Of a stretch of DNA of 32,000 nucleotides, positions 9,412 to 30,501 are shown piece by piece. Both the position numbers and the translations under genes were made by a program. Numbering within the stretch: position 1 is the stretch's first letter; every line of letters starts with the position of its first letter. The notes under the pieces were generated by a model. That model had not been told where the DNA came from. It saw only the letters and a program-made list of their open reading frames with translations, and did not search any database. This stretch comes from Flavobacteriaceae bacterium (lineage in GTDB: Bacteria > Bacteroidota > Bacteroidia > Flavobacteriales > Flavobacteriaceae): contig OZ245049.1 in the NCBI GenBank assembly GCA_965224465.1, positions 4,560,001-4,592,000 of the forward strand, written 5' to 3'.

Positions 9412-10356
9412 ATGAATAAAATTTTATTAATTGTTGTTGTTCTTATGCTAACTACAGCTTGCGCACAACAACAACAACAACAACAACAACAACAACAACA
9501 ACAACAACAACAACAACAGAAAAAGAACATGAACACCCAAACCAGCCAACAGAATAATTACCCATATAAAAACGCCAACCGACCTGGTTATTATTTGCAA
9601 ATAAATAATCAGAATTGTTATTACGAACTGGATATAAATGGCTTAAGCAGTACAGAGTATTATGGTGAATATCCTGCTTATTCAACAAGAATACCTCTAA
9701 ATCTTCAAATATTAAAAAGTGGAACACAAAGTCTTTCCTTAAAAATAGTTCCTTATAAAGGTGATACCCTGTCTCCAAAAGCCAACCTACAAATGCGTTT
9801 GATAAAATATGCAGACATGACAGATTTAGAAAATGAATATGGAGGAAGTACCGTATTGTGGAACTGGGAAATGCCAGATATTGAGAATCAAAAACTACCC
9901 TTATTTGTTTATGATACTGTATTTAATGCAGAGGTGCCCTATACAATTAATACACTTGACACCAAGGCAGTTGATTTATCTAAAATAGACAAAGACATAC
10001 TGCTAGAGAAAGTACTTGCAGAATTTACTAGAATAAGAGCATCTATTATTAATAAAACACAAGACAAAGAAGCTTTATGTAATTTTATAGATTGTGCACT
10101 TATACAATTATACAAAGGAGAAAATCTTAAAGACGAGGTGGTTGATGGTATGATAAATCTTGGAGACGGAAAAGAACCGCAACCCTTAGAGAATTTTGAA
10201 ATGCGCTTGTATTATCACAATAGAATTGTAACTCTGGTTAGGAAAGTTAATAAAAGGTCTGCTATTTGGTTTGAGAATCCAGAAACGGGAGGGACATCCT
10301 GGCAGCCTGTTTATATATACATAGATAAGGTTACTGGGAAATGGGTGCGATGGTAA
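9412..10356 (+). CDS. Family-A lipoprotein, poly-Gln leader form (314 aa); putative cognate immunity protein
   Basis: ATG 4 nt after the effector stop. Leader MNKILLIVVVLMLTTAC (Cys17 lipobox-like), then 18 Gln. Variable patch 1 is DINGLSSTEYYGEYPAYSTRIP and patch 2 is CNFIDCAL. The immunity role is inferred from context. Confidence 0.85.
   Translation: MNKILLIVVVLMLTTACAQQQQQQQQQQQQQQQQQQKKNMNTQTSQQNNYPYKNANRPGYYLQINNQNCYYELDINGLSSTEYYGEYPAYSTRIPLNLQILKSGTQSLSLKIVPYKGDTLSPKANLQMRLIKYADMTDLENEYGGSTVLWNWEMPDIENQKLPLFVYDTVFNAEVPYTINTLDTKAVDLSKIDKDILLEKVLAEFTRIRASIINKTQDKEALCNFIDCALIQLYKGENLKDEVVDGMINLGDGKEPQPLENFEMRLYYHNRIVTLVRKVNKRSAIWFENPETGGTSWQPVYIYIDKVTGKWVRW
9466..9519 (+). repeat. (CAA)17CAG trinucleotide microsatellite encoding 18 Gln
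   Basis: Counted directly in the sequence, in frame, immediately after Cys17-Ala18. Confidence 0.98.
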
Positions 10357-10367
10357 TAAAAGAAAGT

Positions 10368-11270
10368 ATGAATAGAATTTTATTGATTTCGTGGGGCTGT
10401 ATTTTTTTCTGTTGTTCAGTGTATGGACAACAGAAAAAAAACATGAATACCCAAACCAGCCAACAGAACAATTACCCGTATAAAAACGACAGCCGACCTG
10501 GTTATTATTTACAAATAAATAATCAGAATTGTTATTACGAATTGAGAATTAATGATTTTAATGGGGGTAAATATTTTGATATGTACCCATCATATTCAGT
10601 ACGAATCCCCTTAAATTTACGAATATTAAAAAGTGGAAAACAAAATATTTCCCTAAAAATAGTTCCTTATAAAGGTGACACCCTGTCTCCAAAAGCCAAC
10701 CTACAAATGCGTTTGATAAAATATGCAGACATGACAGATTTAGAAAACGAATATGGAGGAAGTACCGTATTGTGGAACTGGGAAATGCCAGATATTGAGA
10801 ATCAAAAACTACCCTTATTTGTTTATGATACTGTATTTAATGCAGAGGTGCCCTATACAATTAATACACTTGACACCAAGGCAGTTGATTTATCTAAAAT
10901 AGACAAAGACATACTGCTAGAGAAAGTACTTACAGAATTTACTAGAATAAGAGCATCTGTTATTAATAAAACACAAGATAAAAAAGATTTAATAAGGGGG
11001 ATAAGACGTCCGCTTATTCAGTTATATAAGGGAGAAAAACTTAAAGACGAGGTGATTGATGGTATGATAAATCTTGGAGACGGAAAAGAACCGCAACCCT
11101 TAGAAAATTTTGAAATGCACTTGTATTATCACAATAGAATTGTAACTCTTCTAAAAAAAGTTGATAAAGAGTCTGCTATCTGGTTTGAGAATCCAGAAAC
11201 GGGAGGGACATCCTGGCAGCCTGTTTATATATACATAGATAAGGTTACTGGGAAATGGGTGCGATGGTAA
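10368..11270 (+). CDS. Family-A paralog, MNRILL leader form (300 aa from the internal ATG)
   Basis: I prefer the ATG at 10368 (MNRILLISWGCIFFCCSVYGQQKK, a signal-peptide-like start 11 nt after the previous stop) over the listed 10341 start, which overlaps the previous gene. Patch 1 is RINDFNGGKYFDMYPSYSVRIP and patch 2 is KKDLIRGIRRPL. Confidence 0.8.
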   Translation: MNRILLISWGCIFFCCSVYGQQKKNMNTQTSQQNNYPYKNDSRPGYYLQINNQNCYYELRINDFNGGKYFDMYPSYSVRIPLNLRILKSGKQNISLKIVPYKGDTLSPKANLQMRLIKYADMTDLENEYGGSTVLWNWEMPDIENQKLPLFVYDTVFNAEVPYTINTLDTKAVDLSKIDKDILLEKVLTEFTRIRASVINKTQDKKDLIRGIRRPLIQLYKGEKLKDEVIDGMINLGDGKEPQPLENFEMHLYYHNRIVTLLKKVDKESAIWFENPETGGTSWQPVYIYIDKVTGKWVRW

Positions 11271-11281
11271 TAAAAGAAAGT

Positions 11282-28414: not shown

Positions 28415-28445
28415 AAACAACAACTTTACAACAGATTAATCATCA

Positions 28446-29546
28446 ATGATAAAAAGGCTGCTATCTGGTTTAAGAATTCAAAAACGAGAGGAACATCCTG
28501 GCAGCCTGTTTATACCAAATACATTTCCAAGAGACGGTTTAGAAATGGAATTATTTTTTATATCGGTCATTTTGGATTGTAATTGGTATCATATATACAT
28601 AGATAAGGTTAAAGGGCAAAGTGGCTTGTCCGAAAAAAAAGAAGTATTAAAAAAAATCAACTTCTCACTTGGTATAGCCGCTGCTTATGGTACAAATAAA
28701 ATTAATTTAACACCTGATTTAGGTAAAAAAATACATGACCTAATATATGAGTTTGCCAAAGCCAAAAACTTAATTGATTCTATAAGTGGAAATTCTGTTA
28801 GTAAAGAAAAACAAAATTCATTATACAAAAATCGGATAAAAAATCTTGGTGGAAAATGGATGAAAAAACTAGACAAACTACCTGTTACCATAACAGTGTA
28901 TCAACCCAGTTTTTCAGCTGGTTTTGCATGGGGTAGGAAAACATTGGAATCACAAACAAATTGCAATGCTCCTATAACATATGATGTGTTTTTAAAAGCA
29001 GATCCTTTATTTAAAATGGAAGGAAGCCTAGATTTAATTACCTGTGCTACTTTTATGCCTGTTATTGGACAGGTAATAAAAGTAGTTGATATTGTATTAA
29101 ATGTTGCTGGAATAGAGCCTGTATTGAAGCTTACTGCCATGGGGGAAATTAAATTATCACTAATAGGTACAATAAAAGTTGACGGCGACACCAATGAGAA
29201 AAAACTAGAAACTAAAATGAGTGCAGGACTCAAAATGACTATAGAAGCAAGTATTACTATAGGAGATGGACTGGTAGGATTTATGTTTGCTGGTGGTGAT
29301 ATTATTGGCACTGTGACAAAGAAGACCTATACCGCCTATGCGGAAACAGGATTTGAATTAAACCTATCCACTGGCGTTACGGCTCATAAAGGCCCCTATG
29401 TAGGAGTGAAACTAGAATTCCTAGGTCTTATTGCCGCAGGGAAATTAGAAACAAAAATGGATGAATATGGAGGGACTTCCGAAGAATCTTTTAAGTATAT
29501 TATTATAGAGAAAACTACTTTTATAGATAAAACTTTTTACTTTTAA
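28446..29546 (+). CDS. Orphan effector C-terminal cassette 4 (open 366-codon ORF)
   Basis: The tail patch is MDEYGGTS followed by EESFKYIII. Confidence 0.6.
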   Translation: MIKRLLSGLRIQKREEHPGSLFIPNTFPRDGLEMELFFISVILDCNWYHIYIDKVKGQSGLSEKKEVLKKINFSLGIAAAYGTNKINLTPDLGKKIHDLIYEFAKAKNLIDSISGNSVSKEKQNSLYKNRIKNLGGKWMKKLDKLPVTITVYQPSFSAGFAWGRKTLESQTNCNAPITYDVFLKADPLFKMEGSLDLITCATFMPVIGQVIKVVDIVLNVAGIEPVLKLTAMGEIKLSLIGTIKVDGDTNEKKLETKMSAGLKMTIEASITIGDGLVGFMFAGGDIIGTVTKKTYTAYAETGFELNLSTGVTAHKGPYVGVKLEFLGLIAAGKLETKMDEYGGTSEESFKYIIIEKTTFIDKTFYF

Positions 29547-29550
29547 AATT

Positions 29551-30501
29551 ATGAATAAAATTTTATTAATTGCTGTTGTTCTTATGCTAACTACAGCTTG
29601 CGCACAACAACAACAACAACAACAACAACAACAACAACAACAACAACAACAACAACAACAACAGAAAAAAAACATGAATACCCAAACCAGCCAACAGAAC
29701 AATTACCCGTATAAAAACGACAGCCGACCTGGTTATTATTTACAAATAAATAATCAGAATTGTTATTACGAACTGGATATAAATGGCTTAAGCAGTACAG
29801 AGTATTATGGTGAATATCCTGCTTATTCAACAAGAATACCTCTAAATCTTCAAATATTAAAAAGTGGAACACAAAGTCTTTCCTTAAAAATAGTTTCTTA
29901 TAAAGGTGATACCCTGTCTCCAAAAGCCAACCTGCAAATGCGTTTGATAAAATATGCAGACATGACAGATTTAGAAAACGAATATGGAGGAAGTACCGTA
30001 TTGTGGAACTGGGAAATGCCAGATATTGAGAACCAAAAACTACCCTTATTTGTTTATGATACTGTATTTAAAGCGGAGGTGCCCTATTCAATTAATACAC
30101 TTGACACCAAGGCAGTTGATTTATCTAAAATAGACAAAGACATACTGCTAGAGAAAGTACTTACAGAATTTACTAGGATTAGAGCATCTGTTATTAATAA
30201 AACACAAGACAAAGAAGCTTTATGTAAATTGGTAAATCGTGGAATTATACAATTATACAAAGGAGAAAAACTTAAAGACGAGGTGGTTGATGATATGATA
30301 AATCTTGGAGATGGAAAAGAACCACAAGCCTTAGAGAATTTTGAAATGTGCATGTATTATCACAATAGAACTGTAACTCTAGTTAGAAAAGTTAATAAAG
30401 GAGCTGTTATCTGGTTTGAGAATCCAGAAACGGGAGGGACATCCTGGCAGCCTGTTTATATATACATAGATAAGGTTACTGGGAAATGGGTGCGATGGTA
30501 A
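29551..30501 (+). CDS. Family-A lipoprotein, poly-Gln leader form (316 aa)
   Basis: 20 Gln. The mature region is almost identical to the MNRILL-leader copies at 20440 and 25463 (patch 2 CKLVNRGI). It is the only A gene in this unit. Confidence 0.85.
   Translation: MNKILLIAVVLMLTTACAQQQQQQQQQQQQQQQQQQQQKKNMNTQTSQQNNYPYKNDSRPGYYLQINNQNCYYELDINGLSSTEYYGEYPAYSTRIPLNLQILKSGTQSLSLKIVSYKGDTLSPKANLQMRLIKYADMTDLENEYGGSTVLWNWEMPDIENQKLPLFVYDTVFKAEVPYSINTLDTKAVDLSKIDKDILLEKVLTEFTRIRASVINKTQDKEALCKLVNRGIIQLYKGEKLKDEVVDDMINLGDGKEPQALENFEMCMYYHNRTVTLVRKVNKGAVIWFENPETGGTSWQPVYIYIDKVTGKWVRW
29605..29664 (+). repeat. (CAA)19CAG microsatellite, 20 Gln
   Basis: Counted in the sequence. Confidence 0.98.

Follow-up and report, generated by a model that had tools for sequence, protein, structure and literature searches.

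Recombination between tandem paralogues is known from the T7SS arrays of esaG in S. aureus and tipC in Streptococcus (Garrett et al. 2022, PMC9484751). There, tandem immunity paralogues that differ from one another are strung out beside a polymorphic toxin, toxin fragments occur inside the array, variable regions flanked by conserved nucleotide blocks have been proposed as the toxin-binding surface, and statistical tests support intergenic recombination that yields chimeric genes and changes in copy number (PMC9484751). The locus described here resembles those arrays in these respects but belongs to a T6SS of the Bacteroidota rather than a T7SS of the Firmicutes, and its protein families are unrelated and uncharacterised. 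Whereas the T7SS proteins are cytoplasmic, those of this locus are predicted to be periplasmic or lipoproteins. Their backbones are also much more uniform (90-100% identity), the variation being limited to very short patches. One of these, patch 1, is trans-specific, and the array is organised in higher-order units that contain effector cassettes and a second family, B.

The orphan modules of Rhs and CdiA loci (Poole et al. 2011, PMC3150448; Koskiniemi et al. 2014, PMC3967940) are promoter-less toxin 3' fragments with an immunity gene. They lie downstream of a full-length gene and can recombine into it, the expressed copy, by virtue of shared homology. The present cassettes resemble them in sequence organisation, but whereas classical orphans usually carry different toxin domains and only a short homology region, these carry the same domain, with about 99.5% identity over ~850 nt and differences mainly in an 8-codon tail patch, and each is followed by several putative immunity paralogues. 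In Vibrio cholerae T6SS auxiliary clusters, orphan immunity genes also pile up 3' of the effector through recombination, but as a record of different effector-immunity families displacing one another in turn (Kirchberger et al. 2017, PMC5361080), whereas here paralogues of one family exchange sequence within genes. The AID/rAID systems of Bacteroidales, likewise from Bacteroidota, are arrays related to T6SS in which the orphan immunity genes have diverged and are reported to carry non-synonymous changes where contact with the effector is predicted; rAIDs are recombinase-associated mobile islands holding many unrelated immunity families (Azhieh et al. 2025, PMC12247911). The present array, in contrast, lies at the effector locus itself and comprises only two related families, with no recombinase in the window (the whole 32,000-nucleotide stretch analysed).

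Two further systems may be compared by analogy only, there being no homology. In colicin E DNase/Im pairs, cognate specificity depends on a handful of residues within a conserved scaffold. In Neisseria pilE/pilS, the expression locus receives, by recombination, silent cassettes that combine conserved arms with mini-variable segments.

The array, about 23 kb of highly repetitive sequence, lies 3' of genes for VgrG, a DUF4280 protein and a 985-aa effector. Its unit runs from an effector C-terminal cassette to a lipoprotein-type A gene, zero to three more A genes and a B gene. Family B is a distant paralogue of A (27% identity). Five effector C-terminal cassettes lie inside the array, four of them complete in the window. 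The features other than the A genes are:

10-1383, IS66 transposase, adjoining a 5'-truncated B copy
1412..2393, +, the 5'-truncated B copy with the usual A-remnant flank, upstream of VgrG and beside the transposase
2991..4757, +, VgrG, T6SS spike protein (Pfam Phage_base_V 1.3e-23, Phage_GPD 8e-12; NCBIfam vgr_GE, VI_Rhs_Vgr)
4762..5706, +, conserved 314-aa protein between the VgrG and DUF4280 genes
5711..6271, +, DUF4280 (PAAR-like) protein (Pfam DUF4280 4.5e-18)
6450..9407, +, 985-aa T6SS-associated effector, immediately 5' of A copy 1
13310..14242, +, B copy of unit 0, lipoprotein-like leader
14265..15365, +, orphan effector C-terminal cassette E1, tail MVQFGGGA; its 5' ~170 nt are an A-gene 3'-end remnant that joins effector sequence at QSGLSEKK
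17443..18366, +, B copy of unit 1
18398..19497, +, orphan cassette E2, tail MDEYGGTS..L; frame interrupted where an A-run near 18677-18682 has lost 1 nt
22471..23394, +, B copy of unit 2, mosaic of both B types
23426..24526, +, orphan cassette E3, tail AGRYGGAS
27491..28414, +, B copy of unit 3
28446..29546, +, orphan cassette E4, tail MDEYGGTS..S
30714..31637, +, B copy of unit 4
31669..32000, +, start of a further orphan cassette that runs past the window end

The 314-aa protein, possibly an adaptor, has no Pfam or NCBIfam match. Its position is also occupied by a protein in loci L001, L003 and L005, and homology, checked for the L006 counterpart only, is at 22% identity (E = 6e-15). The effector has no Pfam match. 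Its N-terminal ~620 aa are conserved, and its C-terminal ~310 aa (about 8466-9404), a putative toxin domain, include a hypervariable tail patch, INKKGEAS, at 9318-9341. Homologues of this domain are always C-terminal in proteins of 750-1050 aa; structure prediction for it gave no usable model (pLDDT 40). The 8-codon tail patch is the main difference between the cassettes and the full effector.

We consider the A proteins most likely to be immunity proteins against this C-terminal domain. In six loci from different genomes (the window, L001, L003, L005, L006 and L007) the effector is followed directly by an A-family gene, an order that holds down to 37% A identity, and an A gene follows each orphan C-terminal cassette. 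In L002 the effector has an N-terminus in common with the 985-aa effector and a divergent C-terminus, and B-like proteins come next in place of A. This switch of partner and the conserved order, together with the VgrG and DUF4280 genes upstream and the signal or lipoprotein leaders of the A proteins, point to an immunity role. It is unlikely that the A proteins are instead exported or surface lipoproteins, serving for example in adhesion or as phage-receptor decoys, that undergo antigenic or receptor variation and are linked to the effector only incidentally. Family A has no Pfam, NCBIfam or PDB relative, which would suit such a role, as would an island of A-like and B-like genes in Cellulophaga whose flanks hold no effector for 10 kb in either direction; however, orphan immunity islands look effector-less too (PMC12247911, PMC5361080), and the order and partner switch described above argue against an incidental link. 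In favour of the other role, one tail core stands beside different A variants: MDEYGGTS occurs in both E2 and E4, yet the adjoining A copies have wholly different patches, which speaks against a simple correspondence of one tail core to one patch.

Family A consists of 13 tandem paralogues, and the thirteen copies claimed in the preliminary description are all present as open reading frames. Patch 1 (residues 74-95 of A copy 1; residues 60-81 counted from MNRILL) has two forms, DINGLSSTEYYGEYPAYSTRIP-like and RINDF(N/K)GG.YF..YP.YSVR.P-like. Patch 2 (residues 218-230 of A copy 1) reads CN/DFIDCAL, KKDLIRGIRRPL, SKAIKRPL, CKLVNRGI or CKGMNRLL. For copies with the MNRILL leader the true starts are 10368, 11282, 12196, 16326, 20440, 21354, 25463 and 26377.

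9412..10356, +, A copy 1 (unit 0), lipobox and (CAA)18 polyQ leader, DING with CNFIDCAL
10368..11270, +, A copy 2, MNRILL leader, RINDFN with KKDLIRGIRRPL
11282..12184, +, A copy 3, MNRILL leader, RINDFN with CDFIDCAL, recombinant
12196..13098, +, A copy 4, MNRILL leader, DTNG with SKAIKRPL
15370..16314, +, A copy 5, lipobox/polyQ leader, DINDLRS with SKAIKRPL
16326..17228, +, A copy 6, MNRILL leader, DING (patch 1, nt 16503-16568) with CNFIDCAL (patch 2, nt 16935-16973), recombinant
19502..20428, +, A copy 7, lipobox/polyQ leader, RINDFK with KKDLIRGIRRPL
20440..21342, +, A copy 8, MNRILL leader, DING with CKLVNRGI
21354..22256, +, A copy 9, MNRILL leader, RINDFN with CDFIDCAL
24531..25451, +, A copy 10, lipobox/polyQ leader, DINGLSG with CKGMNRLL
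25463..26365, +, A copy 11, MNRILL leader, DING with CKLVNRGI
26377..27279, +, A copy 12, MNRILL leader, RINDFK with SKAIKRPL, recombinant
29551..30501, +, A copy 13, lipobox and (CAA)20 leader, DING with CKLVNRGI

The patch forms agree with those first described, and every combination reported then is correct; three were unlisted (DTNG with SKAIKRPL at 12196, DINDLRS with SKAIKRPL at 15370 and DINGLSG with CKGMNRLL at 24531). The statement that the copies are nearly identical apart from these two blocks was too strong. In the family as a whole, variability peaks locally at both patches. Among the 13 copies, 26 of 37 patch columns vary as against 50 of 241 elsewhere, so that two-thirds of the variable residues lie outside the patches at a 3.4-fold lower density; minor clusters occur near residues 157-169 and 250-270. 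The same mature region does stand behind both leader types, copy 13 differing in its mature part from copies 8 and 11 by only 1-2 residues (4-5 nt). The earlier claim of swapped leaders is correct, but it is the mature regions that move: the leader is set by position, lipobox/polyQ always following an effector 3' end and MNRILL always following another A gene.

When the patches were mapped onto a confidently predicted A structure (pLDDT 84.7), patch 1 formed a beta-hairpin and patch 2 lay within a helix. In patch 2 the hydrophobic positions 208, 212 and 216 are conserved and 209-211 and 213-215 are variable, a periodicity that fits an exposed helix face. This model, the variability peaks of the family, the 8-codon tail patch in which the cassettes mainly differ and pN/pS values of 1.3 in the patch-2 core and 1.6 in the effector tail (8 codons, not significant) make both patches plausible specificity sites. 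The five A copies adjacent to cassettes carry five different patch-2 classes (chance about 0.056).

Comparison with other genomes indicates that backbone and patches have different histories. In the backbone, the window copies are 90-100% identical to one another and 76-81% to those of Aquimarina longa, whereas patch 1 of A copy 2 is 92% identical to that of the second A. longa copy and only 50% to that of A copy 1. Neighbour-joining bootstrap support for monophyly of the window copies is 100% in the backbone; in patch 1, species monophyly receives 0% and a cross-species RINDF clade 92%, and the RINDF patch is common to three species. Clustering of the backbone by genome and of RINDF across species shows concerted evolution of the backbone and an origin of at least patch 1 before the species. 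Patch 1 has a synonymous divergence (pS) of 0.45, about 4-5 times that of its flanks; the values for patch 2 and the backbone are 0.26 and about 0.09-0.10. The high value for patch 1 means old lineages, not rapid change. Both forms of patch 1, at least, predate the split between this organism and A. longa. The A. longa array has the same architecture, with a Jukes-Cantor distance of 0.07 in the backbone and 0.54-1.05 in the patches. In Cellulophaga the A copies share only about 50-60% identity and have hardly been homogenised, indicating that strong concerted evolution is not general to family A.

Could the mosaics be chimeras, made by assembling a tandem array of ~95% identity or by mis-mapping of short reads in polishing? 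About 23 kb of repeats with tracts of 0.7-1.6 kb at 99.5% identity would favour such errors, and the window's own proteins are not found in any independent assembly. We nonetheless hold this to be quite improbable, since the contig is 5.24 Mb long, probably a finished or long-read assembly, the independent A. longa genome has the same homogenised backbone and divergent patches, three species share the RINDF patch, and reading frames are intact in 13 of 13 A copies, 5 of 5 B copies and 3 of 4 window-complete cassettes.

The mosaicism of family A is accompanied by a strong signal of recombination, which bears out the earlier proposal of gene conversion or recombination among paralogues in place of simple divergence. 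The PHI test gave z = -11.7 and -11.1 (p < 1/2000) and the four-gamete test an Rmin of 30; with the patches removed, Rmin was 19 and z = -3.9. The patch pattern is far beyond chance, and a table of segment haplotypes displays reassortment among copies. Explicit parent/child triplets have sharp breakpoints (chi-square up to 53). As far as the 5' edge of patch 2, A copy 6 matches copy 8 at 52 of 52 informative sites; beyond it the match falls to 5 of 20, and A copy 6 resembles copies 3 and 9 at 15 of 20 sites (chi-square 49). Its patch 2 and adjoining 3' segment cluster with copy 1 (9412). Copies 3, 9 and 12 are similar recombinants: copy 3, 1 nt apart from copy 9, is copy 2-like through patch 1 and then copy 1-like, and copy 12 is copy 2-like to mid-patch 1 and then copy 4-like. 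Tracts of 0.7-1.6 kb at 99.5% identity cross gene borders, beginning as well as ending inside genes, and patch and backbone trees conflict once other Aquimarina genomes are added. Family B is mosaic as well, as had been claimed: the copy at 22471 has a 5' end of the 13310/27491 type and a 3' end of the 17443/30714 type.

Duplication followed by parallel or convergent point mutation under selection is effectively refuted by the PHI and four-gamete tests and the triplet breakpoints. It could draw on pN/pS ratios of about 1 or higher in patch 2 (core 1.3) and the effector tail (1.6), each over 8 codons and not significant, but multi-nucleotide blocks, synonymous sites included, are identical in copies that differ elsewhere, and the pS of patch 1 speaks for old lineages. 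We give hardly any credence to targeted hypermutation, for example by a diversity-generating retroelement, as the source of the patches with recombination secondary: patch 2 and the effector tail are blocks of about 21-24 nt with flanks mostly identical between copies, but the window has no unassigned open reading frame of at least 180 aa left for a reverse transcriptase, no visible template repeat and no Rfam element, all four bases are substituted rather than adenine specifically, and several copies, as well as different species, share the same unaltered alleles.

We therefore read the array, with a probability of about 0.78, as recombining immunity genes against the C-terminal toxin domain, in which the backbone evolves in concert and short patches are reshuffled. 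The A genes encode exported proteins, the first of each unit a lipoprotein. RecA-type homologous recombination between near-identical repeats would drive the array, unequal crossing-over duplicating and deleting whole units and gene conversion carrying short tracts from copy to copy. Together these processes would keep the backbone uniform within the genome, while the patch-1 hairpin, the patch-2 helix face and the two minor clusters would escape homogenisation and enter new combinations.

Piece-swapping is already known for such arrays; here it occurs in uncharacterised protein families, with a concerted backbone, a trans-specific patch 1 and micro-variable effector cassettes. The patches may set specificity for the hypervariable tail of the effector. 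The conserved effector-then-A order, the tail-patch differences between cassettes and the five patch-2 classes beside them make it plausible that the array is an immunity repertoire tracking variable toxins, as first suggested, its diversity being kept by selection from variable incoming toxins.

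Everything 3' of the effector gene belongs to a higher-order tandem repeat, which comprises five complete units and the beginning of a sixth. The order within a unit is an effector C-terminal cassette, a family-A gene with a lipobox and (CAA)n polyQ leader, zero to three family-A genes with an MNRILL leader, and a family-B gene; the cassette of unit 0 is the 3' end of the 985-aa effector itself. Distant homology links the candidate immunity families A and B (27% identity, E = 1e-9). T6SS spike and sharpening genes (VgrG, DUF4280) adjoin the effector, and the same gene order is found in the related loci L001 (Aquimarina longa), L003 (strain RZ0), L005, L006 and L007.

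Features of the locus (window coordinates)
10-1383: IS66 transposase, abutting a 5'-truncated B copy; the sole mobility gene in the window
1412-2146: 5'-truncated B copy upstream of VgrG, with the usual downstream A-remnant flank to 2393
2991-4757: VgrG (Pfam Phage_base_V, Phage_GPD)
4762-5706: conserved protein without assigned function, between the VgrG and DUF4280 genes
5711-6271: DUF4280 PAAR-like protein (Pfam DUF4280)
6450-9407: 985-aa effector, no Pfam match
9412-30501: span of the 13 family-A ORFs (306-316 aa)
14265, 18398, 23426, 28446, 31669: orphan effector C-terminal cassettes, 5'-truncated, with immunity-type genes after each

The truncated B copy and its A-remnant flank, situated upstream of VgrG, thus represent part of an array unit on the far side of the T6SS genes. 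An Rfam scan of the window returned no matches, and a promoter/terminator scan, which was not designed for Bacteroidota promoters, returned matches below shuffle expectation.

As assembled, the A copies are mosaics that vary most in two patches, residues 60-81 from MNRILL (patch 1; 74-95 of A9412) and residues 204-216 (patch 2; 218-230 of A9412). Copies are named by start coordinate; A10341, A11255, A12169, A16299, A20413, A21327 and A26350 are MNRILL copies whose true starts are 10368, 11282, 12196, 16326, 20440, 21354 and 26377. The preliminary description had distinguished DING-like and RINDF-like forms of patch 1 and several forms of patch 2, and a protein alignment bore out the forms and every combination it listed: DING with CNFIDCAL (9412, 16326) or CKLVNRGI (20440, 25463, 29551), and RINDF with KKDLIRGIRRPL (10368, 19502), CDFIDCAL (11282, 21354) or SKAIKRPL (26377). 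Patch 2 falls into five classes in this alignment (CN/DFIDCAL, KKDLIRGIRRPL, SKAIKRPL, CKLVNRGI and CKGMNRLL), and three further combinations appeared: DTNG with SKAIKRPL (12196), DINDLRS with SKAIKRPL (15370) and DINGLSG with CKGMNRLL (24531). Family B is mosaic as well, as had been proposed, B22471 being a 5'/3' chimera of two B types. The statement that the A copies are nearly identical apart from two blocks was too strong: 26 of the 37 patch columns vary, and 50 of the 241 other columns do too, with lesser clusters of variation around residues 157-169 and 250-270. At the nucleotide level the patches make up 15% of columns but hold 41% of variable sites, and conserved nucleotide blocks flank the variable regions of these tandem, non-identical paralogues.

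Which leader an A copy has depends strictly on its position: copies located behind an effector 3' end invariably have the lipobox/polyQ type, and those located behind another A gene, with an 11-nt spacer between, invariably have the MNRILL type. One mature sequence does occur behind both, as claimed earlier: lipobox/polyQ copy A29551 lies one to two residues from the MNRILL copies A20440 (A20413) and A25463. The first 21 nt and the CAACAGAAAAAA junction are common to both leaders, so the leader difference is itself a patch of about 40 nt. The polyQ tracts are perfect in-frame CAA repeats, which probably change length by slippage and would give a tether of variable length.

Perfect (CAA)n tracts after the lipobox Cys
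9465-9518: n = 18
15423-15476: n = 18
19555-19590: n = 12
24584-24613: n = 10
29604-29663: n = 20

Recombination among the A paralogues, which the preliminary description had read from the mosaic pattern, was detected by four-gamete, PHI and MaxChi-type tests alike. These were applied to the gap-free mature region of the A copies (115 informative sites). The four-gamete test failed for 1515 of 4753 biallelic site pairs (Rmin 30), and PHI was 0.227, whereas permutations gave 0.346 +/- 0.010 (z about -11, p < 1/2000). The signal stays when both patches are removed (Rmin 19, z = -3.9). A MaxChi-type scan of 738 triplets yielded explicit recombinants with chi-square values up to 53. For example, A16299 equals A20413 at 52 of 52 informative sites to the 5' edge of patch 2, and beyond that breakpoint it equals A11255/A21327 at 15 of 20 sites (chi-square 49). 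A11255 and A21327 are themselves A10341-like through patch 1 (38/42 and 37/42 sites) and A9412-like after it (36/41), while A26350 is A10341-like to mid-patch 1 (24/26) and A12169-like thereafter (43/48). All recombinant triplets reach the permutation floor (p <= 2e-4), and by our estimate the nominal chi-square probabilities are still small after correction for triplets and breakpoints. Reassortment is directly visible in a table of segment haplotypes. Comparison of the window with itself revealed 16 tracts of 0.7-1.6 kb and about 99-99.6% identity, which have both ends inside genes and cross gene borders; multi-gene units have therefore undergone unequal crossing-over, and shorter tracts have been converted. 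Across three different species, the window carries 13 A copies, A. longa 3 and strain RZ0 one.

Comparison with related loci, which were found in three other Aquimarina genomes, shows that the backbone of family A evolves in concert and that patch 1 does not. In A. longa, VgrG and an unknown protein precede a putative DUF4280-toxin with its presumed immunity gene, after which come a 983-aa effector and three A copies. With the patches set aside, identity is 90-100% among window copies and 93-96% among A. longa copies, and only 76-81% between the two sets; paralogues within a genome are thus closer than orthologues between species. In patch 1 the relationship is reversed, with window copy A10341 92% identical to the second A. 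longa copy but 50% identical to A9412. Neighbor-joining bootstraps agree: the backbone tree recovers window copies and A. longa copies as separate clades, each at 100%, whereas in patch 1 species monophyly receives 0% and a RINDF clade joining A. longa copy 2 and the copy of RZ0 to five of the window copies receives 92%. A10341 and A9412 are separated by a Jukes-Cantor distance of 0.615 for patch 1 and 0.043 for the backbone; synonymous divergence averages 0.45 for patch 1, 0.26 for patch 2 and 0.09-0.10 for the remainder. These contrasts indicate homogenization of the backbone inside each genome. Both forms of patch 1 are older than the split between the species and escape this process, which is the strongest argument against simple divergence and goes beyond what the preliminary description had claimed. 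The pN/pS of patch 1, 0.43, fits old, internally constrained types. Cellulophaga A-like copies are about 50-60% identical and homogenized just at the extreme 3' end, indicating that the intensity of concerted evolution is lineage-specific. Searches found neither an independent assembly with the window's own protein nor a conspecific genome; metagenomes contained no match to the patch-2 flanks, and scanning them with a profile yielded 3 short loci.

Over about 850 nt the orphan cassettes scarcely depart from the effector (about 99.5% identity). The main difference is a single block of ~21-24 nt, or 8 codons, near the 3' end, together with a few neighboring sites, and this tail position is variable in other species too.

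Tail blocks of the effector and of orphan cassettes E1-E4 (cassette coordinates approximate)
9318-9341: effector, INKKGEAS
15276-15299: E1, MVQFGGGA
19408-19431: E2, MDEYGGTS
24437-24460: E3, AGRYGGAS
29457-29480: E4, MDEYGGTS

The five cassette-adjacent lipoprotein A copies (9412, 15370, 19502, 24531, 29551) carry the five patch-2 classes once each; the chance of this when drawing 5 of 13 copies is 72/1287 = 0.056. Patch 1 recurs between units 0 and 4, so patch 2 is mildly favored as the determinant that would match the tail. E2 and E4 share a tail core beside different A copies, implying that any code needs further positions or that the silent cassettes have been scrambled. The pN/pS ratios of the patch-2 core (1.28; 8 codons, 6 types) and the effector tail patch (about 1.6; 8 codons, 4 types) are suggestive of diversifying selection, in regions too short for significance.

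In E2 an A-run (18665-18688) is one A shorter than in the other cassettes, and this 1-nt deletion leaves the broken cassette as two ORFs, 18398-18694 and 18811-19497. A degenerate A 3' end (AIWF..TSWQPVY, then YIYIDKV) lies upstream of each orphan cassette (14243-14440, and also from 18367, 23395, 28415 and 31638), fused to effector sequence at QSGLSEKK. It follows that the first ~57 residues of the 366-aa "ORFs" are chimeric junk, and that the unit arose by an illegitimate A/effector fusion and was amplified afterwards. P0048, a 354-aa NCBI protein on a 125-kb contig, is another illegitimate toxin/immunity fusion, in which the effector C-terminal domain switches near residue 250 to a B-like C-terminus. 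The full-length effector contains a 45-nt tandem duplication (8370-8458; SEKKAALINKYKEEI / SETKAALINKCKEVI) that is absent from all cassettes and sits just 5' of the start of their homology.

We infer from gene context that A is an immunity family. In six loci, whose A proteins fall to as little as 37% identity, an A gene lies directly 3' of the effector, and one also follows each orphan cassette; A proteins also bear export leaders, which fits a toxin acting in the periplasm. The co-variation of partners suggests that A and B serve two subtypes of one toxin fold. In L002 (uncultured Aquimarina, 3943-9885) the effector N-terminus is as in the window, with strong similarity to about residue 620, but the C-terminus is strongly divergent, similarity beyond that point being weak. 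Three B-like proteins follow it, and then an A pseudogene with an in-frame stop. The downstream family thus co-varies with the C-terminus type, being A in six loci and B-like in L002, and the window B copies are probably orphan immunity genes for a C-terminal subtype that is not encoded there. All 46 A homologues are "hypothetical" proteins of marine Flavobacteriaceae. Pfam/NCBIfam searches with A matched only leader or low-complexity noise, and those with B or the effector gave no match.

The effector C-terminal domain, for which Pfam has no match, belongs to a small family: 1.8 billion proteins yielded 99 clusters of it at 50% identity. Protein searches with it returned 4-5 homologues, and the domain is always C-terminal, in proteins of 750-1050 aa. 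Its hydrophobic, glycine-rich stretches hint that the putative toxin may insert into membranes; a structural model from six sequences (pLDDT 40) was discarded.

Related loci show other arrangements. In Cellulophaga sp. L1A9 (L004, CP047027, 905-17061) A-like and B-like genes alternate over ~16 kb, with TPM_phosphatase and LemA genes among them; this island has no effector within 10 kb on either side, and the last 17 residues of its A copies are identical. L006 and L007 (A identity 37-40%) retain the order adaptor, DUF4280, effector, A, followed by an orphan effector C-terminal fragment of 205-208 aa (6948-7574 and 7065-7682, respectively), which in L006 adjoins a TssD/Hcp gene. A. longa (2639-5160) and RZ0 (3026-5849) carry a DUF4280 protein with an extra ~300-aa C-terminal domain and, after it, the gene for a lipoprotein of 381-386 aa; the two seem to form an additional effector-immunity pair, absent from the window.

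An AlphaFold2 model of A built from 32 family sequences (pLDDT 84.7, pTM 0.77) predicts a beta-sandwich (45-159), three helices (180-199, 205-219, 223-234) and a C-terminal sheet (248-299). Patch 1 is placed at a strand end and beta-hairpin, and patch 2 in the second helix; both are local variability maxima across 29 orthologues. Within patch 2 the hydrophobic i/i+4/i+8 positions 208, 212 and 216 are conserved and positions 209-211 and 213-215 vary, a pattern that would be expected of an exposed helix face. Foldseek and PDB sequence searches with A found no significant relative, a PA14-like relationship (E about 0.2-0.8) being too weak to count as evidence.

We propose that homologous recombination among the repeats would duplicate and delete units and convert short tracts. 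Homogenization may halt at the patches because selection, presumably by incoming toxins, keeps differing specificities, or because local divergence blocks conversion. The locus would thereby acquire a combinatorial repertoire of immunity variants, along with a set of silent cassettes for toxin tails. A bolder reading, to which we give a probability of roughly one in five, is that the locus performs cassette-based specificity switching, analogous to pilE/pilS antigenic variation, on an interbacterial toxin. One T6SS effector would be expressed, and its 8-residue tail patch would be swapped with at least five silent cassettes by homologous recombination. Each cassette would travel with a lipoprotein A variant whose different patch-2 helix is the matching determinant; concerted evolution would keep the homology arms long and perfect for efficient switching, and the extra A copies would serve as a reserve of immunity against the tails in circulation within the population. 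The window does not resemble a rAID island, in which a tyrosine recombinase adjoins arrays of diverse orphan immunity genes: the array consists of two related families at the effector locus, and no tyrosine recombinase occurs within the window, although one might lie beyond its ends. A diversity-generating retroelement was rejected because the window holds no ORF able to encode a reverse transcriptase and no extra patch copy, and the substitutions hit all four bases rather than adenine specifically.

The closest precedent for the array is the tandem esaG/tipC immunity paralogues of the T7SS, which recombine via conserved blocks (PMC9484751). Orphan Rhs/CdiA C-terminal and immunity modules that recombine into the expressed gene (PMC3150448, PMC3967940), T6SS immunity arrays in Vibrio cholerae (PMC5361080) and Bacteroidales orphan immunity islands (PMC12247911) are also established. 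The present array differs from these in that its families are uncharacterised, its backbone is homogenized to an unusual degree and its patch 1 is demonstrably trans-specific; in its orphan cassettes, a micro-patch varies rather than the toxin domain.

Three uncharacterised families without a Pfam match are flagged here: the effector C-terminal domain, family A and family B. The array is a clear bacterial case of concerted evolution alongside a sequence patch shared across species. If patch and tail do determine specificity, it would be a compact natural experiment in toxin-immunity recognition, in which a near-invariant effector domain varies in about 8 residues and variation in A is concentrated on a 22-residue hairpin together with a helix face of 8-13 residues. 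Since nature has already made many of the chimeras, the specificity code would then be directly testable with a handful of constructs, and recombination-driven immunity repertoires, documented in the T7SS, would extend to the T6SS of marine Flavobacteriaceae.
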